The notes: generated by a model from the sequence alone, not told the origin. A stretch of DNA of 64,000 nt from Candidatus Parcubacteria bacterium (GCA_963814275.1 CAWFCE010000002.1:426537-490536); one strand, 5' to 3'. Counted from the first letter of the stretch, positions 7,652-23,629 are shown. Numbers and translations: made by a program.

Positions 7652-8335
7652 ATGGAACCGGAATACAGGATATTTTTGACCGAGGAGTTGGAAAAATTAA
7701 CCCAAGAAACGATACAAAATATCGCGACTTGCTATCGTGAAGTATTTAATTATTTTTGGCACGAGAATTGGACACCCGAAGAAGCTTACGATGAAGTGAA
7801 AAAGGGCTTAGCCATAAATAATTGCCGCCAGCCGCTTTTGTCGATCATGGATATTAAGGATAAAGTGGTAGGTTTTGCCTGGGTAATTTTAGCCTCACGG
7901 GAAGGGTTATCGACCGATGATATGCCATTCGGACTGGCGGATACGGAAAAAGTATATGGGACAAATGTCGTGAAATATTGGTGCGATCTGGCTGGAATAA
8001 ATAAATTCCTGATTTTTCGGGAGATTGGCATAAGTAAAGATTTCCAAAACTGGAAAGGCGAGCATACGGCATCGAAGTTGTCAGTGCCGTTGATGAAAGC
8101 GGCCCTCGCCCGGGGGTATGAGGTGTTATTCTACTGGACAAATCCGCAAAGCGCGTCATTCAAACAGGGCCTTAATTTCGGCTGGCACCCCATACACTTT
8201 TTTACCGGAGCGGACCGCGTTATAATGAAGGGAAGCATCAGAAATCTTGTACATTGTCTGGAAGGCGTGCTCAAAAAAGAGCGCCAGATATTTAAAGAAA
8301 TGAATCAAAACCGAAAAAATTATTATTGCCGGTAA
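7652..8335 (+). CDS. hypothetical protein, possible GNAT-fold acyltransferase
   Basis: I prefer ATG at 7652 because AGGAG lies 6 nt upstream; the GTG at 7604 in the ORF track has no SD. The segment VVGFAWVIL...FREIGISKDFQNWKGEHTASKLSVPLMKAALARGYEVLFYWTNPQSASFKQGLNFGW follows the GNAT beta4-alpha3...beta5-alpha4 pattern only loosely. Confidence 0.45.
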   Translation: MEPEYRIFLTEELEKLTQETIQNIATCYREVFNYFWHENWTPEEAYDEVKKGLAINNCRQPLLSIMDIKDKVVGFAWVILASREGLSTDDMPFGLADTEKVYGTNVVKYWCDLAGINKFLIFREIGISKDFQNWKGEHTASKLSVPLMKAALARGYEVLFYWTNPQSASFKQGLNFGWHPIHFFTGADRVIMKGSIRNLVHCLEGVLKKERQIFKEMNQNRKNYYCR

Positions 8336-8397
8336 ATCGGTCAAGGGCAATTAAGTTTTCCGTTAATTGCCCTTATATTTATTTCAAGTTAAAATAT

Positions 8398-9243
8398 ATG
8401 TTAGGAAAATATGAAATATTATCGCGTACGATTGGCAGTATGGACAAGTATTGCGAGGGTATCTGGAACTGCCGGGATAACTGCTATCTGTTGGGTGTCC
8501 AGCTGGCAGCGGTTAAAACGGCGCGTAGATTCGGCCACAGCGGTTCCTCAAAACTGGATGAGATCAATAGTTTCGATTTGGCGGAAGTGGCGCGCGCCAA
8601 TTGCGGGCAGATCAATATGATTACGGTGTCGTCTTTTTGCGGGCCGAAAGGCTTGATCTGGGGTTATGATATTTTTCCCGGCGCCAAAATCCGCCATCCG
8701 TTAGACGGAAAATTCCAGGACCGTTATATATCGATATATGATATCATGGGCCTGGTGCGGGCGTTGGAAAAATTGCTGGGCCGGATCGAATCCCCGCATT
8801 TTCCGTTTTATCCCGGATCGCATATCCCTTGCGCCTCGAAAAATATAAGCGCCCACGGCCCGGCCATGATATATGCCGCCGAAGGACTGGCCGTACCGTA
8901 TGACCGTCAGCGAAACGCTTGTCTTTTGATGGAAGATATCGGGCACATACCCTTGTCGGTAAAGGACATCGATGATTATAAAATGATGATATTGAGCAAG
9001 CTGGTCAGCAGTATTTTACAAATCGGGATAAACCAAAGGGTCGATTACAAAGAAATATTCATCGGCCTGAATGCCGTATCCGTGGCAGCGGGGGAAGTAG
9101 GTTGCGCGATAGCCTTGTCACCCTACTTTAGCGTGGCTCGTGACGCCATACCGGGAGAGATCGATGCTTTTTCCATCAATATCGGCCAATGGGAATCACT
9201 AGTCTGTAATAAATTCATCGAAAAAAATGCAGCTATTCAATGA
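8398..9243 (+). CDS. pyruvoyl-dependent histidine decarboxylase family proenzyme (HdcA-like)
   Basis: It aligns by eye over its full length with Lactobacillus 30a HdcA as I remember that sequence. LDEINSFDLAEVARANCGQINMITVSSFCGPKGLIWGYDIF matches LDGIVSYDRAETKNAYIGQINMTTASSFTGVQGRVIGYDIL. The Ser-Ser self-cleavage site is encoded at 8629-8634. LLMEDIG matches MFVEDAG, and CAIALSPYFSVARDAIPGE matches NAITVAPYVSLPIDSIPGG. Confidence 0.8.
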   Translation: MLGKYEILSRTIGSMDKYCEGIWNCRDNCYLLGVQLAAVKTARRFGHSGSSKLDEINSFDLAEVARANCGQINMITVSSFCGPKGLIWGYDIFPGAKIRHPLDGKFQDRYISIYDIMGLVRALEKLLGRIESPHFPFYPGSHIPCASKNISAHGPAMIYAAEGLAVPYDRQRNACLLMEDIGHIPLSVKDIDDYKMMILSKLVSSILQIGINQRVDYKEIFIGLNAVSVAAGEVGCAIALSPYFSVARDAIPGEIDAFSINIGQWESLVCNKFIEKNAAIQ

Positions 9244-11383
9244 CCTGATCTATCTTATAACATTTGGGGCTTCTATTTTTTTTGCCTTGTTCGTATATCT
9301 TAAAAACAGGAAATCACCGGTGAATATATATTTTTCGATATACAGCTTCTCCATTATCGGCTGGCTGGCCTCGCTTTTCTTTTTTTATCGGGCAGAGGCA
9401 AGCAATGTTTTGCTGATCGGCCGCTTGAATTTCGCCGCTACGGAAATAATCGCATTTTTCGGATTTTATCTGGGCTATCATTTTCCGGCCTGTTCTTATC
9501 GTTTTAGCCGGAAAATCCACATAATGCTTTCTCTCTGGCTCTTGGTATTGGTCGGTTTGACCATTGGCACGAATCTGATCGATCAGGGGGAGATCATCGG
9601 CAAGGATGACATAGAAACCATATTCGGCAGGTTTTATTTTATATTCATAATCCATTTTCTGTTGTTTATATCCGGCATCTTCATATTGCCGCTGCTTAAA
9701 TACAAAAAAGCGAACCACCAGCGCCGGATGCAGATAAAATATCTGGCCCTCGGCACTTCCCTGTCGATCATATTTGCCGGCACTACCAACATCCTGCTGC
9801 CCTTTGCTTTCAATATTTACGATTTGCAGGCGATCGGTCCGCTGGGTTTGCTGCCCTTTTTCGGGTTCACTTCTTACGCGATCATCAGGCATAGTCTGCT
9901 GGATATAAAAATTGTCATCCAAAGAGGAATTATCTATTCTTTTTTGTTGGCGATTTTAACGGGAGTTTATGTAGTGATGATTTTCTTGCTGGGATTCTTT
10001 TTCCAGTATTCCACGGATGCGGCAATTATTCTGGCGGCCGGCATTTCGACAGTTTTGGGTATTTACGGAGCGCCGCGGCTGGAAAGATATTTCCAGAAAA
10101 AGACCGACAAGATATTTTTTAAAGATAAATACGATTACCGGCAGGCGATGTATGAGCTGAGCGAAGTCCTTAACCGTGAGCTGGAGATGAACCGGCTGCT
10201 CCGTGCTTTTACCGGAAGGTTGAAAGAAATAATCAAAGTCGAGTATGTTAATTTGTTATTGGTAAACGAGAATCTGGTTTGCGATTCCGGCGAGCTCAAA
10301 AGGACGGATGGCAAGATCAGCGATAACCTTAAAAAAATTATCGAAGAACGCGGCGAGATCATGTTGATCCACGACGAGATTCCCGATATTAAGCGGAATC
10401 TCCGTCTGACCGACAGATCGGAAGGATTGATAAAGGCATTGGATGAGGCGGAAAACCTCGGTAAACGTTTCCGTATCGCGGCTTCGGTGGCGATATTATC
10501 GAATAAACGCCTGATCGGCCTTTTGAACATGGGCAAGAAAATGTCGGGCGATTATTTCAACCAGGACGATATTAATCTGCTGAAAACCATGTCTTATCAG
10601 ATCGCCGTAGCCCTGGAAAAAGCCCGGCTATATGAAGCGGTTAAGGAATATTCCCAGGGACTGGAAAAGAAGGTGGAACAGCGAACCGCGGAACTTATGG
10701 GGCTGCAGATGGAGCAGAAGAAAATAATGGAGGAGATGGCGCATGGCCTGCAAACCCCGATCACTATCCTGAAGGGGGAGATCGGTGAAATCAGTCCCCA
10801 GATTCGCGACCATAAAAAAATAAGGCACATCGAGCGTTCGCTTGACCGGGTCTCGAAATTCATCTATGACCTGCTGCGCCTGTCCCGGCTGGAATCGGGA
10901 GGCCGGGAAGATGCCCGCGAAAAATTCGATCTGAGCGAACTGACCAAAGAACTGGTCGAATCGTACGAAATAATTGCCGCGGAACAGCAAGTCATAACCA
11001 AAAGCCGGATAGAGGATAAGCTGGTAATATGGGGCAAACGCTCGTCCGTCGAAGAAATGGTCAATAATCTGGTCAGTAACAGTATGAAGTATTTGAAAAA
11101 TACCGGCGAAAAAGCGATCGAAATCCGGCTTTATCACGCCAAGAAAGAAAAGGCCGCCATTCTGGAAGTAAGCGACAACGGCATCGGTATTCCGCGCCAG
11201 GAATTGCCGCGTATGTTTGAGCGTTTTCACCGGATTCGCAACGGCAATGGACAGTCTGAACGGGGCACCGGGTTAGGCTTGGCGATCTGCAAAGAGATCG
11301 CCGTCAAGCATGGCGGCAGCATTGCCGTGGACAGCCATGAAGGGGAATATACAAAGTTTAGAGTTAAGTTGCCGTTAGCGTAG
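9227..11383 (+). CDS. sensor histidine kinase (N-terminal 7TM region, GAF-like, HisKA, HATPase_c)
   Basis: 718 aa with multiple N-terminal TM helices. A GAF-like segment ends in SYQIAVALEKARLYE. The H-box is EEMAHGLQTPITILKGE, and the N/G boxes are NLVSNSMKY, DNGIGIP and GTGLGLAICKEI. The start overlaps the HDC-like gene by 17 nt. Confidence 0.9.
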   Translation: MQLFNDLIYLITFGASIFFALFVYLKNRKSPVNIYFSIYSFSIIGWLASLFFFYRAEASNVLLIGRLNFAATEIIAFFGFYLGYHFPACSYRFSRKIHIMLSLWLLVLVGLTIGTNLIDQGEIIGKDDIETIFGRFYFIFIIHFLLFISGIFILPLLKYKKANHQRRMQIKYLALGTSLSIIFAGTTNILLPFAFNIYDLQAIGPLGLLPFFGFTSYAIIRHSLLDIKIVIQRGIIYSFLLAILTGVYVVMIFLLGFFFQYSTDAAIILAAGISTVLGIYGAPRLERYFQKKTDKIFFKDKYDYRQAMYELSEVLNRELEMNRLLRAFTGRLKEIIKVEYVNLLLVNENLVCDSGELKRTDGKISDNLKKIIEERGEIMLIHDEIPDIKRNLRLTDRSEGLIKALDEAENLGKRFRIAASVAILSNKRLIGLLNMGKKMSGDYFNQDDINLLKTMSYQIAVALEKARLYEAVKEYSQGLEKKVEQRTAELMGLQMEQKKIMEEMAHGLQTPITILKGEIGEISPQIRDHKKIRHIERSLDRVSKFIYDLLRLSRLESGGREDAREKFDLSELTKELVESYEIIAAEQQVITKSRIEDKLVIWGKRSSVEEMVNNLVSNSMKYLKNTGEKAIEIRLYHAKKEKAAILEVSDNGIGIPRQELPRMFERFHRIRNGNGQSERGTGLGLAICKEIAVKHGGSIAVDSHEGEYTKFRVKLPLA

Positions 11384-11608: not shown

Positions 11609-11634
11609 TCGGCTTGAATTAGCCGATTTTTTTT
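11609..11634 (+). terminator. rho-independent terminator
   Basis: TCGGCT (11609-11614), TGAATT loop, AGCCGA (11621-11626), then T8 (11627-11634). Confidence 0.6.
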
Positions 11635-11720
11635 GTTTTAGAATAATTTTAGAATAAAACAAGATTTGACGTTAAATCAATAGTTTCGGGAAAAAACATC
11701 GGAAAAATTTTATAATTACT

Positions 11721-13049
11721 ATGCCAAAACACGATCAAAAAGAAGCCGCCGCTACAGAACGCCAAGCGAATTTCGTCAGCCAGCCGCCTGTAATGCCTGA
11801 AAAAAGCAGGAAAGAAGTGGAAGACAATGAAGAGCGGTTGAAAATATTGTTCGAAAATGCCCCAGATGCTATTTATCTGAGCGATATGAAAGGGACATTC
11901 CTCGACGGCAACAGAAAGGCAGAAGAATTGGCGGGATATAAACGCGGGGAGCTGATTGGAAAGAGCTTTTTGAAGCTGAATTTGCTTATGCCCGGAGATA
12001 TTCCCCGGGCGGCCAAATCCCTGGCAAAAGCCATATTGGGCCAGGCAACCGGGCCGGAAGAATATACCGTGCGCCGTAAAGACGGCGCAACAGTAATTGT
12101 GGAAATAAAGAATTATCCCGTAAAAATAAAAAATAAAACGGTGATCATGGGTATTGCCCGTGATATTTCAGAGCGGAAAAAGGCGGCGGAAAAAATAAAA
12201 ACTTATCTTGATATCGCGGGCGTGATCATAGTCGCGCTCGGTATAGACGGTACCGTAAACTTAATCAACAAAAAAGGCCGCGATATCCTGGGTTACAGGA
12301 AGAAAGAGATAATCGGAAAAAATTGGTTCGAACTCGTGATCTCGCGAAAAGATAGGGCAAATATTATCAAAGTACATAAAGAAAATTTGCTGATTGAGAA
12401 TAATGAAGTAGTAATAGAGAATAATATCGTCACCAAAAGCGGAAATGAACGAATTATCGCCTGGCACAATACCCGCCTGGTAGATGATGGCGGCAAAGTT
12501 ATCGGTACGCTTAGCTCGGGCGAGGATATTACGGAAAAGAAAGAAATTGAAAATAAATTGCATGAAAGCAATGAGATGCTTCAGAGAATAATCAATCTGC
12601 TGCCAACAAGAATTTTTTGGAAAGATAAAAATCTGAACTATCTGGGGTGTAATCAAATTTTTGCGGAGGATGCCGGGAAGACATCGACAGACGAAGTCAT
12701 CGGAAGAACTGATTATCAAATGGGATGGAAAGAACAGGCGGAACTTTACAGATCAGATGATCTCTCGGTGATTAAAAGCGGTAAATCAAAAATTGATTAT
12801 ATTGAGCCGCAAACAAGCTCTGACGGCAAGCGGATATGGCTGCAAACCACAAAATTGCCATTAACCAATAAAAATGGTGAATTAGAAGGAATATTAGGCG
12901 CTTATTTAGATATTACAAAAACAAAAAAGATCGAAGAGGAACTCCGAAAGCGAAATTTGGAATTGGAGAAAGCCAATAAATTGATGGTGGGGCGGGAGAT
13001 GAGGATGATCGAACTCAAGAAGCGTATCAGGGAATTAGAGAATAAATAG
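11721..13049 (+). CDS. triple-PAS sensor protein with C-terminal coiled coil and no catalytic output domain
   Basis: 442 aa with three PAS-like segments (EERLKILFENAPDAIYLSD..., TYLDIAGVIIVALGIDG..., MLQRIINLLPTRIFWKDKN...). It ends in ELEKANKLMVGREMRMIELKKRIRELENK. Confidence 0.8.
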   Translation: MPKHDQKEAAATERQANFVSQPPVMPEKSRKEVEDNEERLKILFENAPDAIYLSDMKGTFLDGNRKAEELAGYKRGELIGKSFLKLNLLMPGDIPRAAKSLAKAILGQATGPEEYTVRRKDGATVIVEIKNYPVKIKNKTVIMGIARDISERKKAAEKIKTYLDIAGVIIVALGIDGTVNLINKKGRDILGYRKKEIIGKNWFELVISRKDRANIIKVHKENLLIENNEVVIENNIVTKSGNERIIAWHNTRLVDDGGKVIGTLSSGEDITEKKEIENKLHESNEMLQRIINLLPTRIFWKDKNLNYLGCNQIFAEDAGKTSTDEVIGRTDYQMGWKEQAELYRSDDLSVIKSGKSKIDYIEPQTSSDGKRIWLQTTKLPLTNKNGELEGILGAYLDITKTKKIEEELRKRNLELEKANKLMVGREMRMIELKKRIRELENK

Positions 13050-13592
13050 ATGGTTATTTATTTTACCGTTATTATCGGAATATTGTTGATGATCTATGCG
13101 ATTTGGCTCTGGAAAAAGCTATATTCCGAGATTAGGGACAGCAAGGCCCGCCGGCTCTGGCTTATAATATTGGCGTTGATCTGTTTTTTTCTTTTCGGAT
13201 ATATTATTTATTTTTTAATACGGCTCCTGGACTATGACGCAATATCGGATATTTTGGTCGGTTTTATTATGCTTTTTGGGGCAATGTTTGTTGTGCTTAT
13301 TCTGAAATTGAATTTCCGAAGCACCGTTATGCTTAATTCATATGTGCGGAAGTTAGAAGGAGAAACCAAAAGAACCAATGAAATCAATGACCGGCTCAAA
13401 AAGAACGAAAAAGAATTAAAGGGATTGAAAAACGAAATAGAACAGAGAAATATTGAACTTCTGGAAACAATGGATGACTTTTATACAATGCGTATTAGCC
13501 TGCAGGAAGAAATGAAAACAGGTACGATCGAAAAAGAAAATATAAAAATAAAAAAGCGGCTGGATAGCCTGAAAAATAATCAAAATAAATGA
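13050..13592 (+). CDS. small membrane protein (3 predicted TM helices) with cytoplasmic coiled coil
   Basis: 180 aa. The ATG directly abuts the upstream TAG (13047-13049). The N-half is hydrophobic and the C-half is heptad-rich and charged. No family was recognised. Confidence 0.6.
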   Translation: MVIYFTVIIGILLMIYAIWLWKKLYSEIRDSKARRLWLIILALICFFLFGYIIYFLIRLLDYDAISDILVGFIMLFGAMFVVLILKLNFRSTVMLNSYVRKLEGETKRTNEINDRLKKNEKELKGLKNEIEQRNIELLETMDDFYTMRISLQEEMKTGTIEKENIKIKKRLDSLKNNQNK

Positions 13593-16579
13593 ATATCTTC
13601 AAGGACAAGCTGATAATATCCCTTTACGTTGCGGTAATACTGGTTTTGCCGCTTAACTTCGTATTGGCTGAAAACGAGGTTGATTTGATTAGTCCGGATG
13701 CAAATGTGATAACAATAAAGTCGGCTTCCGAATATGATTATCCGCCTTTTTCGGTCGTTGACGGAAATGGGCAGGCAGATGGATTTTCGATTGAATTGCT
13801 AAAAGCCGCGCTAGGCGCAGTTGGCTGGGAAGTCGAATTTTATACCGGGACCTGGGACCAGATCAAGGACGATCTGGCCAACGGCCGGATACAGGTATTG
13901 CCATTGGTCGGCCGGACGCCGGAACGGGAGGCAATTTTCGATTTTACCGTACCCTATATTACTCTTTACGGCGCGATTTTCGTACGTTCCGGAGAAACCG
14001 GGATCAATTCGGTTGCCGATTTGCAGGGCAAACAGATCGTGGTAATGGCCGGTGATAATGCCGAAGAATACGTGCGGCGCGAAAATCTGTCAGATAGTAT
14101 AATAACCACCAATACGTTCGAAGAGGCATTTAAACTCCTTTCGGCTGGACAATATGATGCTGTTGTTACTCAAAAAGTGATTGGTTCGCGCTTGCTGGCA
14201 ATGGCCGGAATAGAAAACATAGTGGTGGCCGCCCAGCTGGACGATTTCCGGCAGGATTTTACTTTTGCCGTGAAAGACGGCGATCGGGAAATGCTGAGCT
14301 TGCTCAATGAAGGCCTTTCAAAAATTATCGCCAACGGCACTTTTGATACGATATACGATAAATGGCTTGTCCAGGGCTTGCCCGCCGAGGAGGATAGATA
14401 TGGTTATAGTGAAATGTTTCCGAGCGACCCCGTTACCAGGGCGAAATTAATTTTCGAATATGACCGCAGCCTGACTGACTCGAGCTATAATTACATTTTG
14501 ACCGGTGATGTTTATTGGAAAAATAATTATGATGAAATTGGTAAAAAATTGGATATTTTGATAAAGGCGGCCAAGGACGAAGCAAAAACCGACGAGCTGA
14601 AAAATTTGTTTGCCGAATTGAATGACACCAACCTCAAGCTAGTGCAGATAGAACTCAAGGCCCATGAATTGGTAAAAGAAGACAAAAAAGACGAAGCAAA
14701 AGCGACAATCGACAGCCAGGAATACAAAAACTGGAAAGTGGCATATGCCAATCTGATCAATAATTATTTTAAGATATTGGGAGTGGCAATACCAGAGGAT
14801 TCTTTGTCGTATACTTTTGCCAAGGACATGATCAGGCAAAAAGCCGAAGACGTGGCGAGGCAGATCGAAATATATCTGGAAGCCCATCCGGAAATGACGG
14901 TAAAGGATCTACAAACAGATCCCGAATTCCAGGAGTTGGCCGTGCAAAAGATCGGCCAAACCGGCTATACATTCGTCTATGACTACGATACCATGATCAA
15001 TTTATTCGATGAGAAGCCGGAGTTTGTCGGGTTGGATTATACCACCCTGAAAGACGAGCCGAGGCGGGAAGAATGGTGGGCAATAACCGAACCGACCAGA
15101 TATGGCCGGCAGGACGCGGCAGGTACTTATCAATGGCAGGATCCGGACGGTGTCTTCCGGGATAAATACAAATACACCAGGATAATACAGGTTAAAACGG
15201 CGGACGGGGTCGGATTGGCATTGGCGGCGTCAACATATCTGGATGAATATGAGAATAGTCCGAACGTAGAGGATAAATCAGCCGAGACGGATTCAAGCAC
15301 CACTACCGCGCAGGTGAATAACGCGGGCTTTGGGCGGCTGACCATATTGGTTTATTGGATCGGCGGCATATTAATTTTGCTTTTTTTGTTTATCTTTATC
15401 TTAAATCAATTTAAGATAATTTATTTTGAACGCAAAAAGATTCTTTATATTTTAATATTAGCCTTGGTTGTAATGATCGGTTTATTCGCACTGAATACTT
15501 ATCAGACGACCGAGACAATGAAAAGAGACAGGATCAATTTTGTGGTTGATCGGATGTCCATGGTAGCCGTGTCACGAAAAAATTTCATACAATTTTTTAT
15601 TGATGAACAAAAAGAAAAGATACATATAGCGGCCACGCAACAGGATCTGACCGATGACGAATTGAAAGAATTGCTCGGATTGAATGATGAATTAGAAGAA
15701 GTGTTCGTAATGGATTCCGCGGGAATAGTGACTAGTTCTTCCGATCAGTCGTCCATCGGTTCCGATCGGTCGGCTTATGATTATTTTATAGAAGGCAAAA
15801 AGGCAGTATATATCAAACCGGTGTTTTATTACAGTCCGTCGGGAAAGGCCGAGATCTATGTGTCTACACCGTTTCATGGGGGTGTATTGGCAACAAGGTT
15901 GAATACCGAACCGCTTAACGAAATTGTCGCTGATTTTACCGGGTTGGGCGGAAGCGGCGAGAGTTTGCTGGCATTTCGCAATGATGACGGGGATGCAGTA
16001 TTTTTTACCGATCGAAGATTCAGCGATGAAGCGACCACGGAAGACGAAATAATACCGAAAGAAAACGAGGCAATACCGATTACGCAGGCATTGCTCAAAA
16101 ATGAAAAAGTTTATATGGATTTTAAAGATTATCGCAATGTGCCGGTAATCGCCGTAACCGGCTACATCGACAATTTGGATATCGGTTTGGTGGCCAAGAT
16201 GGATACGGAAGAGGCATTGGCGCCGGTAATCAATACGATCAATAAAATTTGGCAGTTCACTGTCGGCATCATTTTATCGATTATTATAATCGGGATAATT
16301 TTCGTATATTTGTTAACCAACTCTCTCAAGAAGGAAGTTGAAATTAAGACCCGCGAGATAAGGAATAACACCGCAAAGATCAAAGAACAGCTGCAAAAAG
16401 TAGCAACGGCCGGCCGCATCCAGGAGCAGCTTATTAAGGAACAAAAATTGTCAAAAAAAGAGCTTGAAAATAAAATCGACGAGTTGGAAAAATTCCAAAA
16501 ATTGACAATCGACCGGGAGCTTAAGATGATCGAATTGAAGAAAAAAATTAAAGACCTCGGAAAGAACAGCCAGTCCTGA
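13589..16579 (+). CDS. membrane sensor with SBP_bac_3 (amino-acid-binding-like) domain, Cache-like domains, TM helices and a coiled-coil tail, without an output domain
   Basis: 996 aa with an ATGA overlap onto the upstream gene. The SBP3 pattern is present (EYDYPPFSVVD..GFSIELLKAA...TPEREAIFDFTVPY...YDAVVTQKVIG...FAVKDGDREMLSLLNEGL). A later Cache-like region sits between TM helices. The tail is ELEKFQKLTIDRELKMIELKKKIKDLGKN. Confidence 0.8.
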   Translation: MNIFKDKLIISLYVAVILVLPLNFVLAENEVDLISPDANVITIKSASEYDYPPFSVVDGNGQADGFSIELLKAALGAVGWEVEFYTGTWDQIKDDLANGRIQVLPLVGRTPEREAIFDFTVPYITLYGAIFVRSGETGINSVADLQGKQIVVMAGDNAEEYVRRENLSDSIITTNTFEEAFKLLSAGQYDAVVTQKVIGSRLLAMAGIENIVVAAQLDDFRQDFTFAVKDGDREMLSLLNEGLSKIIANGTFDTIYDKWLVQGLPAEEDRYGYSEMFPSDPVTRAKLIFEYDRSLTDSSYNYILTGDVYWKNNYDEIGKKLDILIKAAKDEAKTDELKNLFAELNDTNLKLVQIELKAHELVKEDKKDEAKATIDSQEYKNWKVAYANLINNYFKILGVAIPEDSLSYTFAKDMIRQKAEDVARQIEIYLEAHPEMTVKDLQTDPEFQELAVQKIGQTGYTFVYDYDTMINLFDEKPEFVGLDYTTLKDEPRREEWWAITEPTRYGRQDAAGTYQWQDPDGVFRDKYKYTRIIQVKTADGVGLALAASTYLDEYENSPNVEDKSAETDSSTTTAQVNNAGFGRLTILVYWIGGILILLFLFIFILNQFKIIYFERKKILYILILALVVMIGLFALNTYQTTETMKRDRINFVVDRMSMVAVSRKNFIQFFIDEQKEKIHIAATQQDLTDDELKELLGLNDELEEVFVMDSAGIVTSSSDQSSIGSDRSAYDYFIEGKKAVYIKPVFYYSPSGKAEIYVSTPFHGGVLATRLNTEPLNEIVADFTGLGGSGESLLAFRNDDGDAVFFTDRRFSDEATTEDEIIPKENEAIPITQALLKNEKVYMDFKDYRNVPVIAVTGYIDNLDIGLVAKMDTEEALAPVINTINKIWQFTVGIILSIIIIGIIFVYLLTNSLKKEVEIKTREIRNNTAKIKEQLQKVATAGRIQEQLIKEQKLSKKELENKIDELEKFQKLTIDRELKMIELKKKIKDLGKNSQS

Positions 16580-16660
16580 ATCATAAATTACGCACATAAA
16601 TAATTAAAGTTACCTTTGCGCGTCGGCTGGACCGGCTCAAGCGTAAAGCGTTTTAAAATT

Positions 16661-17803
16661 ATGCAAGTTGAACAAAAAAAATGGACCGTCGATACCGGCT
16701 GGACCGATATCACATCGAATAAGCTTAAAGAAAAGCCGCAGCTAGTGCTGGTTTTTGGAGGAACCGCGGCCCTGAAAGTAAAGAAAAATTATGAATATTT
16801 AAAGTCATTATATCCGGGCTCCAATATTATAGCCTGTTCCACGGCCGGCGAAATTATCGGGACGGAAGTATTGGACAACTCTATAGTATCGACGGCTGTT
16901 TATTTTTCGAATACAAGATTAAAATTCGCCCAAGTCGAAATAAAAGCCAGCACGGATAGTATTAAATGCGGAAAAGAATTAGCCGGAACTTTCGATCAAG
17001 ACGGATTGGTGCATGTGATGGTGTTTTCCGACGGCCTGTTGGTCAACGGTACGGATCTAGTCGACGGACTCGAGCAGGTCTTGCCGAAAAGCGTGTCGGT
17101 TACGGGCGGTCTGGTCGGCGACGGTGCTGATTTCAAGGAAACCTTGACGGGTTTTAACGAGTTGCCCGCAAGCGGGCGGATCGTGGCCGTCGGGTTTTAC
17201 GGTAGTAAAATCAGGATCGGCTACGGTTCGCTCGGCGGCTGGGATGCTTTCGGGTTGGAACGCACGATAACAAAATCAGCCAAAAACGTATTATACGAAC
17301 TTGACGGGAAACCGGCCCTGGCATTATACAAGGAATATTTAGGCGATAAAGCCGCCGGTTTGCCAAGCACCGCTCTGTTGTTTCCCCTGCGGGTAAAGCT
17401 CGATACTCCGAATGGAGTGGTCGAGGTTGTCAGGACAATTCTGGCAGTAGATGAAAAAGAACAGAGTATGACTTTTGCCGGCGATATGCCCGAAGGCTCC
17501 GCGGCCGCCTTGATGAAAGCCAACCCGGAGATGCTGATCAGCGGAGCTGAGGGAGCCGCGAAGGAAAGCAAGAGCATTATTGATTTATCCCCCGATCTGG
17601 CGATATTGGTAAGCTGTATCGGCCGCAAACTGGTGCTAAAAGAGCGAACCGAAGAAGAGCTCGAAGCCGTGCGCGGCATATTCGGAGAAAATACCGCTCT
17701 TGCCGGCTTTTATTCATACGGCGAGATTTGTCCGATCAAGGCGGCCGAAAAGCAATGCCAGTTGCATAACCAAACGATGACGATTACGATTTTTAAAGAG
17801 TAA
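16661..17803 (+). CDS. FIST-domain sensor protein (FIST_N + FIST_C)
   Basis: I prefer ATG at 16661; the track start at 16616 is a TTG. Supporting motifs are PQLVLVFGG...GSNIIACSTAGEI, LDGKPALALYKEYLG and DLAILVSCIGRKLVL...FYSYGEICP. Confidence 0.85.
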   Translation: MQVEQKKWTVDTGWTDITSNKLKEKPQLVLVFGGTAALKVKKNYEYLKSLYPGSNIIACSTAGEIIGTEVLDNSIVSTAVYFSNTRLKFAQVEIKASTDSIKCGKELAGTFDQDGLVHVMVFSDGLLVNGTDLVDGLEQVLPKSVSVTGGLVGDGADFKETLTGFNELPASGRIVAVGFYGSKIRIGYGSLGGWDAFGLERTITKSAKNVLYELDGKPALALYKEYLGDKAAGLPSTALLFPLRVKLDTPNGVVEVVRTILAVDEKEQSMTFAGDMPEGSAAALMKANPEMLISGAEGAAKESKSIIDLSPDLAILVSCIGRKLVLKERTEEELEAVRGIFGENTALAGFYSYGEICPIKAAEKQCQLHNQTMTITIFKE

Positions 17804-17900
17804 AATTTATAGCCATATTTAACAGAAAAAACAAGATTAATTATAATTGGCAGTTGCCGTCATCCGGGCCGGGCAATTACGGTTGGTGAAATTTTTAAAT

Positions 17901-19802
17901 ATGCATAGCATCTTAAAACGACAAATAAATAAATACCTAAAAGAACCGGATGAATTATCGGGCAATATTGGGGAACTTCTCAAGGCAGTCAGCTTGGCTT
18001 ATGAACATTTTGACGAGGACAGGGCTTTTATGGAGCGGACTATGCAGATAAGCACCAGGGAACTTAACGAGGTTAACCAGCGGTTAAGAGGCAATATCGA
18101 AGCGGAAAAGACAAGTAAACTAGCCCTGGAAAAACAACGTTTGGCAATGATTAATATTCTGGAAGACGTATCCGAATCTCAGGATGAACTGGAATCAACA
18201 TACCGGAAGCTGCAGAATAAAAGCCGGCAATTGTCCGCCCTGAAATCGCTAAGCGATGAATTGGGCTCGGTATTGGAAGTGGAGGAGACTATTATAATTA
18301 TAAACCAGTATTTATGTGAATTCGCCGATCCCTGTACGGCCAGTTATTTGATTAACGATTCCTTGGAAGAGGGGGCATTAATTTATTCCGCTTATTTGGC
18401 CAAAGAAGTGAACGAAAAATATCTGGAGCAAAGCGGAAACTACCTGATATCATACATGCGCGACGCCAATAACGAGGGTATCAGCGGTTTACTCAAGATT
18501 GTATCAGCGGCAAAACCGAGGATTTTCGGCAAACAATTGGATAACGCTTCCCGGCTTGAACCCAAGCAGATTGAGATCTTCAAATTAGCGGTTGGCGAGC
18601 GGATATTGGGGCTGGTTCAGATTACGTCAGATAGCGGCAAAGTGCTGTCCGGGGAAACGAGAGAGATGATTACCGCCATAATCCTTACGGCTACATTGAC
18701 AATCGACCGCCTGCAAAACATCAATCTCACCCACCATTCGCGCACAGTATCGCTGGTCGAAAGCATGACAGACGGAGTCGTAATGTTCAATTCCAATGCC
18801 GATATCGTGCTGATGAATCCGTCATTCAGCCGATTTACCGGATTTTCCCGGGAATATTTCCGGATGGCCGATCTGTATCGGCTATTATCCGGACATAATA
18901 TGCAAGAGAAGGTCCAGGAGACGGTAAGCGGCGGAGAAGCGGCAAAGATCAATGAGGCCGTGATCGGCAATAAGACATACGAAATATACATTACGCCGGT
19001 CAGCGATAATCGGCGGATTGTCGGCGGGGCGATCATTTTTCATGATATTACATATCTCAAGGAGATCGACCGGATGAAAACCGAATTCGTGTCCGTAGCT
19101 TCCCATCAATTGCGTACGCCCCTGACCGCCATTAAGCTGTTTACCGATATGATGATCAAGGGCCAGGTCGGCGGCTTCAACCCGGAACAGCAGGAGTATC
19201 TCGAAAATATTTCCCAATCGACCGACCGGATGGTCCGCTTGGTCAACGATCTCCTGAATGTCAGCCGGATAGAATCCGGCCGGCTGCGGGTAGAGCCGCA
19301 GGCGGTGGATGTTGTCGCCTTCATCAAAAATATAATTGCCGAAGCCAAGCCGTTGGCGGCGTATCGCAAACAAAAAATAAGCCTCAGGAATCCCGCGAAA
19401 GACCTTAACCGGGTATCTCTGGACCAAAATCTGATGCGGCAGGTATTCCACAACCTGATTGTCAACGCCATCCGCTATTCGCCGGAAAATACGGGCCTGA
19501 TCAGTGTGGCAATAAATTCCGATAAGGAATCGTTCACCGTATCCGTCCAGGATAACGGCATCGGTATCCCCCCCCAAACCCAAGGCAGGATTTTCGAAAA
19601 GTTCTACCGGGCCGACAATGCGATCAAAGCGGTTACCGAAGGGACCGGATTGGGATTGTATGTATCCCGGATGATCGTCGAATCGTCGGGCGGTAAGATC
19701 TGGTTCGAATCGGCCGCGGGAGCTGGCAGTACGTTCTTCGTCCGGATGCCGAAAAGCGGCATGAAAAGGAAAACCGGGGAGCGCGGCCTGTCTATATCCT
19801 GA
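17901..19802 (+). CDS. PAS-containing sensor histidine kinase (HisKA + HATPase_c)
   Basis: I prefer ATG at 17901. The N-terminal helix ILKRQINKYLKEPDEL...AYEHFDEDRAFMERTMQISTRELNEVNQRL is a type often found C-terminal to FIST domains. The H-box is FVSVASHQLRTPLTAIK, with DNGIGIPPQ and GTGLGLYVSRMIVESSGG. Confidence 0.9.
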   Translation: MHSILKRQINKYLKEPDELSGNIGELLKAVSLAYEHFDEDRAFMERTMQISTRELNEVNQRLRGNIEAEKTSKLALEKQRLAMINILEDVSESQDELESTYRKLQNKSRQLSALKSLSDELGSVLEVEETIIIINQYLCEFADPCTASYLINDSLEEGALIYSAYLAKEVNEKYLEQSGNYLISYMRDANNEGISGLLKIVSAAKPRIFGKQLDNASRLEPKQIEIFKLAVGERILGLVQITSDSGKVLSGETREMITAIILTATLTIDRLQNINLTHHSRTVSLVESMTDGVVMFNSNADIVLMNPSFSRFTGFSREYFRMADLYRLLSGHNMQEKVQETVSGGEAAKINEAVIGNKTYEIYITPVSDNRRIVGGAIIFHDITYLKEIDRMKTEFVSVASHQLRTPLTAIKLFTDMMIKGQVGGFNPEQQEYLENISQSTDRMVRLVNDLLNVSRIESGRLRVEPQAVDVVAFIKNIIAEAKPLAAYRKQKISLRNPAKDLNRVSLDQNLMRQVFHNLIVNAIRYSPENTGLISVAINSDKESFTVSVQDNGIGIPPQTQGRIFEKFYRADNAIKAVTEGTGLGLYVSRMIVESSGGKIWFESAAGAGSTFFVRMPKSGMKRKTGERGLSIS

Positions 19803-19940: not shown

Positions 19941-20336
19941 ATGGCAAAGCAAAAAACAGAAAAAAAATATAAGATTTTATTGGCGGAGGATGATAAATTC
20001 ATTTCCCGCGCCTATTATGACGGCTTAAGCCGGGCCGGCTATGACGTGATCGCGGTATTTGACGGCAATGATGCCCTGGAAAAAATCAAGAATGACAAAC
20101 CTGATTTGATCCTCTTGGATTTGATCATGCCCGAGAAGAACGGTTTCGAAACCTTGGAAGAGCTGAAGCGTGATCCCTTGACCAAGGATATACCGGTCAT
20201 AATTATTTCTAATCTGGGCCAGGACAGCGATATCAGCCAGGGCTTGAAATTGGGGGCGGCGGATTACCTTATCAAATCGAACTATTCCCTGGATGAGGTG
20301 GCGGACAAGATCGCCAAATTGCTAAATATAAAATAA
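19941..20336 (+). CDS. single-domain CheY-like response regulator
   Basis: 131 aa with ILLAEDD, DLILLDLIMPEKNG and YLIKS. The stop lies 8 nt before the pilB-like ATG. Confidence 0.9.
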   Translation: MAKQKTEKKYKILLAEDDKFISRAYYDGLSRAGYDVIAVFDGNDALEKIKNDKPDLILLDLIMPEKNGFETLEELKRDPLTKDIPVIIISNLGQDSDISQGLKLGAADYLIKSNYSLDEVADKIAKLLNIK

Positions 20337-20344
20337 TATTCGAT

Positions 20345-22039
20345 ATGCAATTGACCGAAAGTTTAATCAAGGAATTATTGGTCGATCACGGTTTCATAGA
20401 CGAGAAAGATTTTAAGCGCGCCGCCAACCATGCCCGGGCCAGCAGCCGGCCGCTTAATGATATTTTGATCGATGAGGGCCTGGTTAAGGATGAGGAGCTG
20501 GGCCAGCTTATAGCACAGCATTTCGGATATCATTTTGTATATTTGCAAAAAGAAGCGATCGATGAAGAAGTAATGAAAAAAATTCCCGAGATAATGGCCA
20601 GGCAACAAGGCGTAATCGCTTTCAAGCGGGATCGCGATGCGGTCAGTATCGGCATGATTGATCCGGTGGACGCCGCTTTACTTCATATCCTGGAGAAACG
20701 TTTTGCCTGCCCGGTCAACCCATACTATATTACGGAGAACGACCATAAGCTGGCAATGGCCAAATATCAGGGGGACTGGCAGGAAAAATTGACGCGAATG
20801 ATCGCCGCATTCAATCAAGCGGACGACAACAACGAGAGGCATAACCAGCTGGCTGTCGACATTATCGACCATTTATTGGCCTACGGCCAGTATAGCCGGG
20901 CATCGGATATCCATATCGAACCATTAGCGGAAGAAACCGTGGTACGTTTCCGGATCGACGGCCTCATGCACGAGGTATTACGCATGCCCCAGGCCCTGGC
21001 TGAGCTTTTTACGATGCGGATAAAGATCCTGTCCAGGATGAAAACCGATGAATACCGGGCAGCGCAAGACGGGAAATTCCAATTTAAAGCCGGCACGCAA
21101 ACCGTGGACGCGAGAGTTTCGGTCATACCCGTCACCAACGGCGAAAATGTGGTGATGCGCCTGCTGGCATCCGACAACCGGCAGATCAATCTTAATGAAT
21201 TGGGATTTTCCGAAGCGGATTTTACCCGGTTAACCGAACATATCAGGCATCCGCATGACATGATACTGGTAACCGGGCCGACCGGATGCGGCAAAACGAC
21301 CACCCTTTATGCTATTCTGAAGATCGTCAACAAGCCGGAAATAAATATTGCCACCATCGAAGACCCGGTCGAATACGATATTCAGGGGATCAGCCAGATT
21401 CAGGTAAACACGAAAACCAACCTGAGCTTCGCCCAAGGTCTTCGGTCGATCGTCCGTCAGGATCCGGACGTGATCATGGTCGGTGAGATCAGGGATGAAG
21501 AGACCGCCGCTATCGCGGTAAATTCCGCCATGACCGGGCACATGGTGCTGTCTACTGTCCACGCCAATGATGCCGCCACCACTTTGCCGCGCCTTTTGGA
21601 CATGGGAATAGAGCCTTTTTTGATCGCCTCGACGGTAAAGCTGATAATCGCCCAGCGCCTGGTGCGCCGGATTTGCGCCAAATGCCGGTCGTCATACATC
21701 ATTAGCGAGGAGGAGAGCCGGTTGATCGAATCGAGCCCGAATCTGAAAAGGGTTTTGGCTGAAATAGGCGAGGATAACAGCGCCAAATTACGGCTGTACC
21801 GCGGTAATGGCTGTAATGTCTGCTCCCAAACGGGTTATGCCGGCCGGATCGGTATATTCGAAGTATTGGCGGTCGATGACACGATCCGTAAATTGATCCT
21901 GGACCGCTCCTCCAGCGAAACGATAGGAAAAGCGGCAGTAGCGGCGGGTATGGACACGCTATTGAAAGACGGGTTGGATAAAACTTTCAACGGACTAACC
22001 ACTTTAAGTGAAATTATCCGGGTTACCGAATCCGGTTAA
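20345..22039 (+). CDS. pilB: type IV pilus / T2SS assembly ATPase (GspE/PilB family)
   Basis: 564 aa. The N-terminus resembles a T2SSE_N-like domain. Walker A is GPTGCGKTT, with Asp/His boxes (IMVGEIRD, GHMVLSTVH). The tetracysteine CAKC...CNVC is typical of extension ATPases. Confidence 0.92.
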   Translation: MQLTESLIKELLVDHGFIDEKDFKRAANHARASSRPLNDILIDEGLVKDEELGQLIAQHFGYHFVYLQKEAIDEEVMKKIPEIMARQQGVIAFKRDRDAVSIGMIDPVDAALLHILEKRFACPVNPYYITENDHKLAMAKYQGDWQEKLTRMIAAFNQADDNNERHNQLAVDIIDHLLAYGQYSRASDIHIEPLAEETVVRFRIDGLMHEVLRMPQALAELFTMRIKILSRMKTDEYRAAQDGKFQFKAGTQTVDARVSVIPVTNGENVVMRLLASDNRQINLNELGFSEADFTRLTEHIRHPHDMILVTGPTGCGKTTTLYAILKIVNKPEINIATIEDPVEYDIQGISQIQVNTKTNLSFAQGLRSIVRQDPDVIMVGEIRDEETAAIAVNSAMTGHMVLSTVHANDAATTLPRLLDMGIEPFLIASTVKLIIAQRLVRRICAKCRSSYIISEEESRLIESSPNLKRVLAEIGEDNSAKLRLYRGNGCNVCSQTGYAGRIGIFEVLAVDDTIRKLILDRSSSETIGKAAVAAGMDTLLKDGLDKTFNGLTTLSEIIRVTESG

Positions 22040-22042
22040 AAT

Positions 22043-23134
22043 ATGTTTAACAGAACCGACCACACTAAAAAGACCACGCAGCGCCTCTCTTGGGCCTGGA
22101 TCACCTCAGGCGAGCGGGCGATGGTCGCGCGCCAGCTGGGGACGATGCTCATGGCGGGCCTGGAGATAAACGAAGCGCTTGATATCGTTTGCGACCAGTT
22201 GAAAGGCGGCGGCCGGCGGGTCTTGCGCGCGGTCCAGCAGGAAACGCTGGCCGGCAATCCACTGGCGCAGAGTATGGCCAGATATCCGCATGTTTTTCCC
22301 GCTTCATTGGTCGCCGCCGTGCGGGCAGGCGAACAAGCGGGGGTGATCGCCGAGAATCTGGTCCATGCGGCCGGCGGCCTGGAGCGGGAAAGGGAGCTCA
22401 AGGCGGCGATCCGGGGGGCGCTCTATTATCCCCTGATAATCATTTCGATGAGCGTGGTTCTGGGAGCGGTTTTGTCTTTTTTCGTGTTACCGCGGATCGT
22501 GCCGATACTCAAAGGCCTTCATGTGGAATTACCGTTAACGACCAGGGCCCTGATCGCCTTTACGGATTTCATCTCCCGCCACGGCTGGGCGACGGGCGGG
22601 GTTATGCTCGGCTCAGCGCTATTCATCTGGTGGATATTGCGCCAGCGTGTTGTCAAACCATTCTCCCATCAGGTACTGCTGGTATTGCCGATACTGGGGA
22701 AAATAAGCCGTGAATCGAATCTGGCCCATTTTTCCCGGACCCTTTCTACCATGCTCAAAAGCGGCCTGTCCGTGAACGAAGCCATGTCTATAACCGGTGA
22801 ATCATTGCCCAATTATGTTTATCGGCAGAGTGCGGCGGTGATCAGCGGGCGTTTGCAGTCCGGAGAGTCGATATCCGCTGTAATGGGCGGATACAAGAAA
22901 CTGTTTCCCCGGCAAGTACTCAGCCTTATCCGGGTCGGAGAAAAATCAGGCCGCCTGGAAGAGGAACTGGCACATATCGGCAAAATCTATGAGTCCGAAG
23001 TTGACCGGGCAGCCAAACGGTTAACCATCATTATCGAGCCACTGCTGCTTATTGCCATCGGTCTGGCGGTTGGCTTATTGGCCCTGTCCATCATTACGCC
23101 GATTTATAAAATTACAGGAAATCTTTATCACTAA
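22043..23134 (+). CDS. pilC: type IV pilus / T2SS platform protein (GspF/PilC family)
   Basis: 363 aa with two T2SSF-like repeats (LATMLMAGLEINEAL; LSTMLKSGLSVNEAM) and 3 TM helices. The start is 3 nt after the pilB stop. Confidence 0.9.
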   Translation: MFNRTDHTKKTTQRLSWAWITSGERAMVARQLGTMLMAGLEINEALDIVCDQLKGGGRRVLRAVQQETLAGNPLAQSMARYPHVFPASLVAAVRAGEQAGVIAENLVHAAGGLERERELKAAIRGALYYPLIIISMSVVLGAVLSFFVLPRIVPILKGLHVELPLTTRALIAFTDFISRHGWATGGVMLGSALFIWWILRQRVVKPFSHQVLLVLPILGKISRESNLAHFSRTLSTMLKSGLSVNEAMSITGESLPNYVYRQSAAVISGRLQSGESISAVMGGYKKLFPRQVLSLIRVGEKSGRLEEELAHIGKIYESEVDRAAKRLTIIIEPLLLIAIGLAVGLLALSIITPIYKITGNLYH

Positions 23135-23612
23135 AAACGGCAAAAATTATTATTATAAAATCCGCGGATTTACCATTACGGAAGTCTTGGTCGTATTGGG
23201 GATTTTTTCCCTTCTGGCCGCGCTGGCTATTCCGGCATTTGGTAATTGGCAGAATGAAACCCAGCTCGACACTGTATGGAGCGAAATGATCTCAACCTTG
23301 CGTTTGGCGCAAACGCGAACCGTTTCCGGTTATTTGGGCAAGAATTTCGGCGTTTATCTCGATCTGAACGGTGATAGCGGGAAGAGGTTCATCTTGTACC
23401 AGGGGGAAAATTACGTGTCGCGGGAAAGTGAATATGACCGGTCGATAGGAATACCGACTGCCATAACGGTCAATAGCGATCTAAGCGATCCGGATATCGG
23501 GTTTACTAGTGATGATCCGAGCGTAACGGCGACCGGTACGATTATTCTGGCGCAAGACAGCCGTCCCGGACGTATAATTTCTATCACTGCCGCCGGAGTT
23601 ACGGGAAATTAA
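23052..23612 (+). CDS. pseudopilin/minor pilin with prepilin N-terminal methylation motif
   Basis: KIRG|FTITEVLVVLGIFSLLAALAIPAF matches the G/F-x-x-x-E class III signal. The true start is uncertain: only a TTG at 23052, inside pilC, is in frame upstream. Confidence 0.7.
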   Translation: MPSVWRLAYWPCPSLRRFIKLQEIFITKNGKNYYYKIRGFTITEVLVVLGIFSLLAALAIPAFGNWQNETQLDTVWSEMISTLRLAQTRTVSGYLGKNFGVYLDLNGDSGKRFILYQGENYVSRESEYDRSIGIPTAITVNSDLSDPDIGFTSDDPSVTATGTIILAQDSRPGRIISITAAGVTGN

Positions 23613-23629
23613 TTATCCGGAATTTGTAT

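Follow-up and report, generated by a model that had tools for sequence, protein, structure and literature searches.

Genome censuses abound in proteins that consist of input domains alone (PAS-only, GAF-only, REC-PAS), and separately encoded sensors acting on a neighbouring kinase, control of a kinase through helix contacts, and proteins without an output domain are all known already. Here we consider positions 11721-16579, and the genes that follow them, in a stretch of 64,000 nucleotides from Candidatus Parcubacteria bacterium (GCA_963814275.1, CAWFCE010000002.1:426537-490536), which as a whole is called the window below. Two unrelated sensor proteins encoded there end in the same helical segment (the tail), and a histidine kinase encoded downstream carries another motif (the head) ahead of its catalytic domains. 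We believe, with a probability of roughly 55%, that kinase-less sensors use the tail as their output (transmitter) module, by which they are coupled in trans to a head-bearing kinase. A portable terminal motif on unrelated sensors, together with a specific motif on the kinase side, appears to be new; the best class for the finding is that of a third-component sensor serving a two-component system.

The closest described systems resemble the window in part. In the NosP-NahK and H-NOX-kinase pairs, as we propose for the window, a separate output-less sensor regulates the kinase encoded alongside. NosP and H-NOX sensors are globular and act through their own fold, whereas the window presents unrelated sensors with one portable helical tail, and kinases with a matching motif. 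The BvgS/EvgS-type kinases share a periplasmic SBP_bac_3 (Venus-flytrap) input with the larger of our two sensors (996 amino acids, aa), many homologues of which carry the source name "EvgS-like kinase"; unlike them, the 996-aa protein has no HisKA, HATPase, REC or HPt. In the RetS-GacS system, according to the available part of PMC8498467, a kinase is controlled via contacts between helices, which disturb or reshape the helical core of its dimer; RetS differs from the tail in being kinase-like, in using its own DHp, and in being lineage-specific rather than a widespread portable motif. The output-less REC-(PAS)n, REC-PAS-GAF and PAS-only proteins of Galperin et al. 2018 (PMC5847659) are similar to the tail proteins in having inputs without an obvious output; the available part of that paper calls the targets of input-only proteins "still-unidentified" and gives neither a C-terminal motif nor a partner for the output-less proteins.

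The nearest structural relative is the S-helix, which, in the accessible text of Anantharaman, Balaji and Aravind 2006 (PMC1592074), lies nearly always between two signalling domains and has the signature ERT at heptad positions c-d-e, with Arg at d. The tail is likewise a coiled coil of about 40 residues that follows PAS, GAF, PocR, HAMP or transmembrane (TM) inputs and has Arg at d. It differs in having G/D-R-E instead of ERT at c-d-e (its signature is FN.L.VGRELKMIELK) and in being terminal, with nothing after it, whereas the S-helix sits between domains. Neither a terminal form nor a trans partner of the S-helix is mentioned in that accessible text. Many tails are preceded by a separate ERT-like K/R-T motif 12, 19, 26 or more residues ahead of them.

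The features on which the argument depends are as follows (ORF, open reading frame).

11721-13049, + strand: cytoplasmic protein of 442 aa with three PAS domains (3xPAS), no output domain and the tail at its end (ORF, Pfam, NCBIfam).
12921-13046, + strand: tail of the PAS protein, aa 401-442; core GREMRMIELKK at 12990-13022.
13050-13592, + strand: protein of 180 aa, with three TM segments and then a coiled coil at the C-terminus (ORF, hydrophobicity scan).
13589-16579, + strand: 996-aa SBP3/dCache membrane sensor with the tail at its end (ORF, Pfam, AlphaFold).
16340-16360, + strand: S-helix-like EIKTREI immediately after the last TM segment of the 996-aa protein.
16445-16567, + strand: tail of the SBP3/dCache sensor, aa 953-993; core DRELKMIELKK at 16511-16543.
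17847-19802, + strand: soluble histidine kinase, probable ATG at 17901 (ORF, Pfam, hydrophobicity scan).
18054-18209, + strand: head region of this kinase, aa 70-121; core LAMINILED at 18141-18167 (aa 99-107).

The PAS and SBP3/dCache proteins have in common a terminal helix of about 42 aa, '..ELEKFNKL.VGRELKMIELKK.I..L', which ends 0 and 2 residues, respectively, from the C-terminus. A first-pass annotation of this DNA had reported the tail as 29 residues identical at 15 positions; the likeness is real, with the count to be raised to 16/29. A tail hidden Markov model (HMM) built without the window sequences gives 57.4 bits (E 1.5e-18) for the 996-aa protein and 55.1 bits (E 8e-18) for the PAS protein, with all remaining ORFs of the window at or below 1.2 bits, and the core RE[LM][RK]MIELK is present at exactly two places when the window is translated in all six frames. 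At the DNA level the two tails are about 65% identical and differ at many synonymous sites; thus, the likeness does not come from a recent duplication but is old and selected.

No output domain accompanies these tails. In agreement with the first-pass annotation, Pfam and NCBIfam give no kinase, cyclase, phosphodiesterase or DNA-binding domain in the 442-, 180- and 996-aa proteins; in particular, neither HisKA/DHp nor HATPase_c is present in the three proteins of 11721-16579, and both HisKA and HATPase_c are found in the proteins at 17847 and 9227. The 442-aa protein has three PAS stretches (PAS_4 E 6.9e-35, TIGR00229 E 4e-57; Pfam and NCBIfam) and no TM segment in a hydrophobicity scan. In the 996-aa protein the order is signal/TM, SBP_bac_3, a Cache-like region, two TM segments, dCache, TM, and a 93-aa helix with the tail. 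SBP_bac_3 (PF00497) covers aa 44-260 with E 2.9e-28, the match to TIGR01096 (E 1e-27) is under the equivalog cut-off, and the same scan places four TM segments at aa 7-25, 582-600, 616-634 and 885-903. The final 93 residues, a helix ending in the tail, are the sole cytoplasmic portion.

The Cache domain named in the first-pass annotation stays below the Pfam cut-off in sequence (dCache_1 E 3e-4, 20.9 bits against a cut-off of 45) and is recovered in structure. The AlphaFold model of aa 620-996 (mean predicted local distance difference test score, pLDDT, 77) has dCache sensors as its top PDB matches (rpHK1S-Z16, KinD, DctB, Mlp24; Foldseek matches to 3lif, 4jgo, 3by9 and 6ioq, E 4e-9 to 1e-6), so that, at the level of a predicted model, a double PDC/Cache fold between TM helices is confirmed. 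The same model joins the last TM segment and the C-terminus by a single uninterrupted helix.

One might suppose that the missing output domain is an artefact of frameshifts or assembly errors, a caution raised in the first-pass annotation. We consider the chance of this negligible. The downstream ORFs are complete, unrelated and have their own starts, and hundreds of homologues stop at the same point. An independent assembly (Logan, run ERR11571143) yields identical 442-aa and 180-aa genes, so their stop codons are not assembly errors; the homologues, this assembly and the kinase-core counts given below exclude the explanation.

The tail belongs to a very large, apparently unnamed family. The 46-aa tail alone gave no match in a word-indexed protein database, where it shares too few 5-residue words with its relatives (a limit of the method). 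A profile search over 1.84 billion representative proteins, which uses no word index, returned 18,072 of them, bacterial and archaeal, at E<=1e-3, of which 3,236 reach E<=1e-10. Among the best 150 matches the median distance from the motif to the C-terminus is 22 residues, and in most the end of the tail lies 9-35 residues from it. Similarly, 29 of the 119 homologues of the PAS protein end in '..ELE.FN.L.VGRELKMIELKK.I.ELE..', 9-23 residues from the C-terminus; a longer variant of the tail terminates in '..ELKKEINEL...LG..P.Y..'. An alignment of 30 tails shows no variation at R, E, M, L and K. In species-representative genomes, 463 tail loci were confirmed by a scan; cultured carriers among them are Geobacter sp. 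OR-1, Cupriavidus sp. D384 and Pontiella desulfatans. The bacterial carriers include Geobacter, Pelobacter, Desulfobulbaceae, Nitrospirota, many Patescibacteria, Verrucomicrobiota, Bacteroidales and Cupriavidus, and the archaeal ones DPANN and Methanoperedens. The possibility left by the first-pass annotation, that the tail is a generic coiled-coil ending, does not hold: the search across genomes returned invariant residues and a conserved neighbourhood.

Among the libraries searched, the tail has no Pfam model (weak generic coiled-coil/bZIP noise only) and no NCBIfam model. Against the PDB its profile matches nothing convincingly (best E 0.49, generic zippers). A full-text literature search with the motif strings found no relevant paper, and keywords gave related concepts, not the motif.

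The company of the tail is that of inputs. In 99 tail proteins Pfam finds PAS (82), PocR (16), GAF (13) and REC (8), and in fewer cases dCache_1, HAMP, SBP_bac_3, CHASE, CHASE4 and CBS; all 25 Pfam families listed are input or transducer domains, with no output domain among them. HAMP precedes the tail in some tail proteins outside the window, and has no Pfam match in any window protein. With a local kinase-core HMM, no kinase core was found in 149 tail-bearing representatives (0/149) or in tail-bearing locus ORFs (0/141 and 0/86); the tail-bearing homologues of the SBP3 sensor (0/21) and of the PAS protein (0/29) have none either, overall 0 of about 426. The alternation is clearest for the homologues of the 996-aa sensor, of which 21 carry a tail but lack a kinase and 89 show the reverse; at the C-terminus the closest relatives have either a tail (P0272, P0273, P0275 and others) or a head plus HisKA-HATPase (P0274, P0278, P0281). 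Judging by these architectures, the tail is in the place of an output domain. REC-(PAS)-tail proteins also exist, usually encoded just downstream of hybrid kinases, which suggests that the tail serves as an output of response regulators too.

The close homologues of the 996-aa protein fused to a head and a kinase permit another explanation, namely that the kinase-less sensors are decoys, truncated paralogues that heterodimerise with full-length kinases via homologous sensor and S-helix regions and so titrate or poison them, with the tail itself neutral. There is a precedent in RetS, which inhibits GacS through heteromeric helix contacts, according to the available part of PMC8498467. Nevertheless, we find decoys improbable: the window kinase and the tail proteins have no sensor domain in common, at least ten unrelated types of input domain precede tails, and a neutral ending is unlikely to hold invariant residues over 18,072 clusters.

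Some tail proteins depart from the simple layout. In P0134 and P0127, both of about 305 aa, two tandem tails are combined with several TM segments and with repeats of an S-helix-like 'RTKEL' unit, and P0215, P0132, P0256 and P0147 have two tails each with a sensor domain in between. In the centre of locus L026 (Candidatus Paceibacterota contig JBBABZ010000006.1) there are eight tandem tail genes of about 350 aa each, with no kinase within the 20-kb locus.

The head, 'A.LN..ED', lies in a coiled coil ahead of PAS/HisKA, usually 19 residues past the ERT of an S-helix. The window kinase consists of an N-terminal helical region, the head, about 190 unassigned residues, PAS, HisKA and HATPase_c; it has no TM segment in the hydrophobicity scan and no recognised Pfam sensor domain ahead of the head. 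Its head scores 39 bits against a head model that included the window kinase sequence.

The head was noticed in the first four tail neighbourhoods. One has a PAS-tail gene followed by a dCache-HAMP kinase; another, a PAS-tail gene directly against a dCache-HAMP-tail gene; another, a PAS-tail gene overlapping a HAMP-tail gene and then a kinase; and another, PAS-tail, FIST and kinase genes, with a divergent REC gene beside the kinase. The first three genes of the last one stand in the same order as in the window, where the REC gene instead lies downstream on the same strand. All three kinases of these neighbourhoods (3/3) have 'KTA.LNMMED' after an S-helix ERT.

Larger samples of loci, treated with our own ORF calling and local HMMs, extend this link in both directions. 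The tail-centred sample (80 genome loci and the five earlier ones, from many phyla) contained 77 informative loci, in 40 of which a head-bearing kinase is encoded at most three same-strand genes downstream of the tail gene. The head occurs in 41 of the 51 non-hybrid kinases of these loci versus 4 of the 34 hybrid kinases. The first kinase 3' of a tail gene has a head in 44 cases and none in 19, compared with 8 heads among 119 background kinases retrieved by sensor similarity alone (odds ratio 32, p 4e-19, for samples that are not independent). In the reciprocal direction, a broad head alignment had no conserved stretch usable for a metagenome scan, and the test was narrowed to one head subfamily. 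It gave 80 metagenome loci, with upstream sequence available for 54 kinases. These 54 contain no redundancy at 90% identity and fall into 19 clusters at 50%; one or two tail genes lie at most four genes upstream in 51 of them. The commonest spacing between a tail gene and the next gene is -4 nt (ATGA).

The genes between tail gene and kinase encode further binding proteins of small size, namely FIST, periplasmic substrate-binding, hemerythrin, SpoIIAA-like or CheR proteins, with FIST in few loci (its position is filled, as in the window, in L004, L029 and L032). Elsewhere, a 108-aa Cys-containing, a 66-aa ferritin-like, a hemerythrin or a substrate-binding protein is encoded between two tail genes. 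The first of these, a conserved protein of about 108 aa with 'YGID..K.VT.LMVRDAI..CF..AHCA', is found in L090, L096, L102, L129 and L159; the second, of about 66 aa, helical and ferritin-like in pattern, in L126, L127, L144, L148 and L062.

The candidates for a partner of the tail proposed in the first-pass annotation fare differently. The downstream histidine kinase is supported by the neighbourhood of its head motif. The 180-aa TM protein contains neither motif, and no counterpart of it was seen between the tail genes of the other loci; the FIST protein proves to be an optional stand-alone sensor rather than a tail partner. The 180-aa protein had also been counted as one of three sensors, which holds for the PAS and SBP3/dCache proteins; in this one only three TM segments (aa 1-19, 34-52 and 66-84) and a coiled coil are seen, with no significant Pfam or NCBIfam match. 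We considered it as a carrier of a diverged head ('NIELLETMDDF') or tail, and rejected this at about 0 bits with both HMMs. It may be a local membrane scaffold.

A further explanation accepts docking and assigns it to another partner: the stand-alone REC proteins, the DHp or PAS of the kinase, or a part of the pilus, for instance the PilB-like ATPase. Single-domain REC genes, one to four of them, do follow the head-bearing kinases; T2SSE and T2SSF genes (Pfam) lie upstream of the tail gene in L002, and unannotated ORFs of about 549 and 371 aa, PilB/PilT-like by size alone, lie upstream of the tail/head operons in several metagenome loci of the Candidate Phyla Radiation; and the column profiles discussed below do not fit a simple in-register pairing of tail and head. 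However, REC genes follow most kinases anyway, which leaves the motif-specific association unexplained. Many tail loci have no pilus genes (Geobacter, Nitrospirota and archaea are examples), and proteins with both motifs link the tail to the head, not to REC. We rate this explanation as quite unlikely.

The helix phase provides a separate line of evidence on how tail and head could meet. The T of ERT precedes the G of the tail by 12, 19, 26, 33 or 40 residues and the N of the head by 19 residues (100 of 107 cases); accordingly, tail and head are in one heptad phase, with G-R-E of the tail at c-d-e. The EIKTREI of the 996-aa protein conforms to the tail family, since its T is 54 residues N-terminal to the D of DRE, which is 5 modulo 7. 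Across 135 tails the 'a' positions are hydrophobic with a period of 7 residues for a length of more than 40 residues, and we infer a parallel orientation of the tail coiled coil. The head precedes the phospho-His by 31, 38, 45, 52 or 66 residues; these heptad steps place it in a coiled coil that continues into DHp. On average the tail core has a net charge of +1.5 and the head core one of -1.4. Hydrophobic residues wrap about two thirds of the helix in the tail core, and both cores exceed what a two-stranded coiled coil needs; by composition, this surplus would fit a larger helical bundle.

Both motifs occur in one chain in a few proteins, for example in P0146 (tail, about 35 aa, head) and in P0124, P0135 and P0151 (tail, PocR, head, further domains, then a second tail). 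Homology of tail and head was tried and rejected (hhalign probability 2%). Also rejected was a simple parallel pairing of tail and head in register, as a heterodimer held by canonical g-e' salt bridges; the column profiles of 135 operon pairs disagree with it.

The strongest competitor, which we still regard as unlikely, is that the tail is a homo-oligomerisation cap, an S-helix-like coiled coil that keeps the sensor dimer together: the signal exits through other surfaces or other partners, and the adjacency of tails to head-bearing kinases reflects shared descent, such as fission of multi-sensor kinases and operon inheritance, and not contact. The heptad pattern of the tail and its Arg at d resemble the ERT of the S-helix, the AlphaFold helix is plain and continuous, the column patterns are unlike those of a simple in-register heterodimer, and dimerisation has been proposed as the output of REC-PAS proteins by Galperin and colleagues (PMC5847659, in the part available). 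No kinase lies within three genes of the tail gene in 27 cases, which also agrees with a cap. On the other hand, the conservation goes beyond the needs of dimerisation, with R, E, M, L and K unchanged in carriers that range from DPANN archaea to Geobacter; an invariant Arg in a core position would disfavour a plain homodimer, and a hydrophobic circumference of about two thirds suggests a further interface. The tail and kinase cores are strictly exclusive, and the counts of 51/54 and the odds ratio of 32 concern one kinase motif, not kinases generally.

Several observations weigh against our proposal of a transmitter acting on head-bearing kinases. Only about half of the tail-centred loci have a head-bearing kinase nearby; in addition to the 27 cases just mentioned, the next kinase is a headless hybrid in 17. 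The reciprocal figure of 94% refers to one head subfamily (A[TVI]LNILED[VIL]), mostly from Patescibacteria-like metagenome contigs, and these loci are non-independent through operon inheritance. The window head lacks the usual ERT 19 residues upstream. In an in-register pairing the Arg at d of the tail would face Ile/Met of the head, and the 135 operon pairs have hydrophobic/polar inversions at +1, +2, +3, +6 and +8. Finally, the head is also found inside the kinase-less tail proteins P0124, P0135, P0139 and P0151, and is therefore not exclusive to kinases.

Taking both sides together, we hold it quite probable that the two tail proteins are functionally tied to the kinase at 17847. That the tie is a direct contact of tail and head is, on the present sequence evidence, an evenly balanced matter. 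That tail and head form a widespread, portable coiled-coil plug and socket, so that any tail-ended sensor module (PAS, GAF, PocR, Cache, SBP or REC) fits a head kinase, we advance tentatively, as slightly less probable than its negation.

For the window our inference, which covers the contact and its geometry as well as the direction of regulation and the output to the pilus, is as follows. The 3xPAS protein in the cytoplasm and the SBP3/dCache protein facing the periplasm would sense separate cues, and each would hand on the movement of its helix into its own tail. The tail would be a coiled coil of about 42 residues that carries on the S-helix register from the last PAS or TM helix, with an invariant polar core of G/D-R-E at heptad c-d-e followed by M..LK. 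It would engage the acidic head (A.LN..ED) of the N-terminal coiled coil in the kinase at 17847, and this would shift the kinase/phosphatase balance toward the response regulator at 19941. A trans input to this kinase is proposed because it is a soluble protein in which no recognised sensor domain precedes the head. The FIST protein is, by its domains, presumably a further accessory sensor and, by the precedent of NosP, may act on the same kinase as a third stand-alone sensor. The downstream target would be the neighbouring type IV pilus genes, which is a guess from position. The "modular sensor-only relay" of the first-pass annotation fits this scheme, the tail standing in the place of an output domain and having a conserved head-kinase neighbour.

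A tail with no kinase core and a kinase-side motif just downstream offer a concrete partner and two short segments that can be mutated. If the proposed coupling is true, one kinase integrates several separately encoded sensors and acts as a multi-input hub; in the window, periplasmic solute sensing and cytoplasmic PAS sensing would be tied to a regulator beside type IV pilus genes. The arrangement would be especially common in Patescibacteria and DPANN archaea with their small genomes. It would explain signalling by output-less sensor and REC-PAS proteins, which number in the thousands across bacteria and archaea; for some of the output-less REC-PAS and PAS proteins, the tail/head pairing would provide the target that has been missing. 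Tail and head would also be a compact part for engineering or rewiring the links between sensors and kinases of two-component systems.

The remaining features of the region are listed below.

11609-11636, + strand: terminator-like hairpin and T-run, 3' of the upstream kinase gene.
16616-17803, + strand: stand-alone FIST_N + FIST_C protein, probable ATG at 16661 (Pfam, NCBIfam).
19941-20336, + strand: single-domain response regulator (REC; Pfam).
20345-24586, + strand: type IV pilus genes, namely a PilB-like T2SSE ATPase with MshEN, a PilC-like T2SSF and an N_methyl pilin (Pfam).

The hairpin is probably the 5' boundary of an operon, and no comparably placed terminator-like site was found in the intergenic spaces of 11721-19802 on the + strand. 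The probable gene order is PAS-tail, TM protein, SBP3/dCache-tail, FIST, kinase, REC, and then the PilB-like, PilC-like and pilin genes. Both tight junctions described in the first-pass annotation are borne out: the TAG stop at 13047-13049 lies directly against the ATG at 13050, and the next two genes overlap by ATGA at 13589-13592. The FIST protein matches FIST (E 1.8e-43) and FIST_C (E 8.2e-35) in Pfam; with 52.8 bits against a cut-off of 450 in the NosP model, it is weakly NosP-like by sequence.

In the window kinase, an N-terminal helical segment 'ILKRQINKYL...LLKAVSLAYEHFDEDRAFMERTMQISTRELNEVNQRL' (aa 19-70, 17901-18050) lies ahead of the head; similar N-termini are presumably present in other PAS, kinase and GGDEF proteins. 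The other kinase, at 9227-11383 (+), is a multi-TM protein with GAF-HisKA and HATPase_c; it fits the S-helix half of the head model only and has no head motif. Its start is overlapped by the gene of a pyruvoyl-dependent decarboxylase (HDC/PvlArgDC family) at 8326-9243 (+). Among the other loci, the archaeal-type L003 and L004 have KaiC-like ATPase genes (PF06745) just upstream of PAS-tail genes, and in L001 and L004 a conserved protein of about 184 aa ('VCYVCLSKP..') adjoins the REC gene.

Further along the window, a 1415-aa protein at 30576-34823 (-) has an N-terminal prokaryotic methylation (pilin) motif and, by sequence, looks like a giant pilin-like protein. One ORF of 8033 aa at 35464-59565 (+), with fn3 repeats, Laminin_G_3, DUF2341 and Ig-like domains (Pfam), looks in its domain content like a giant surface or adhesin-like protein.

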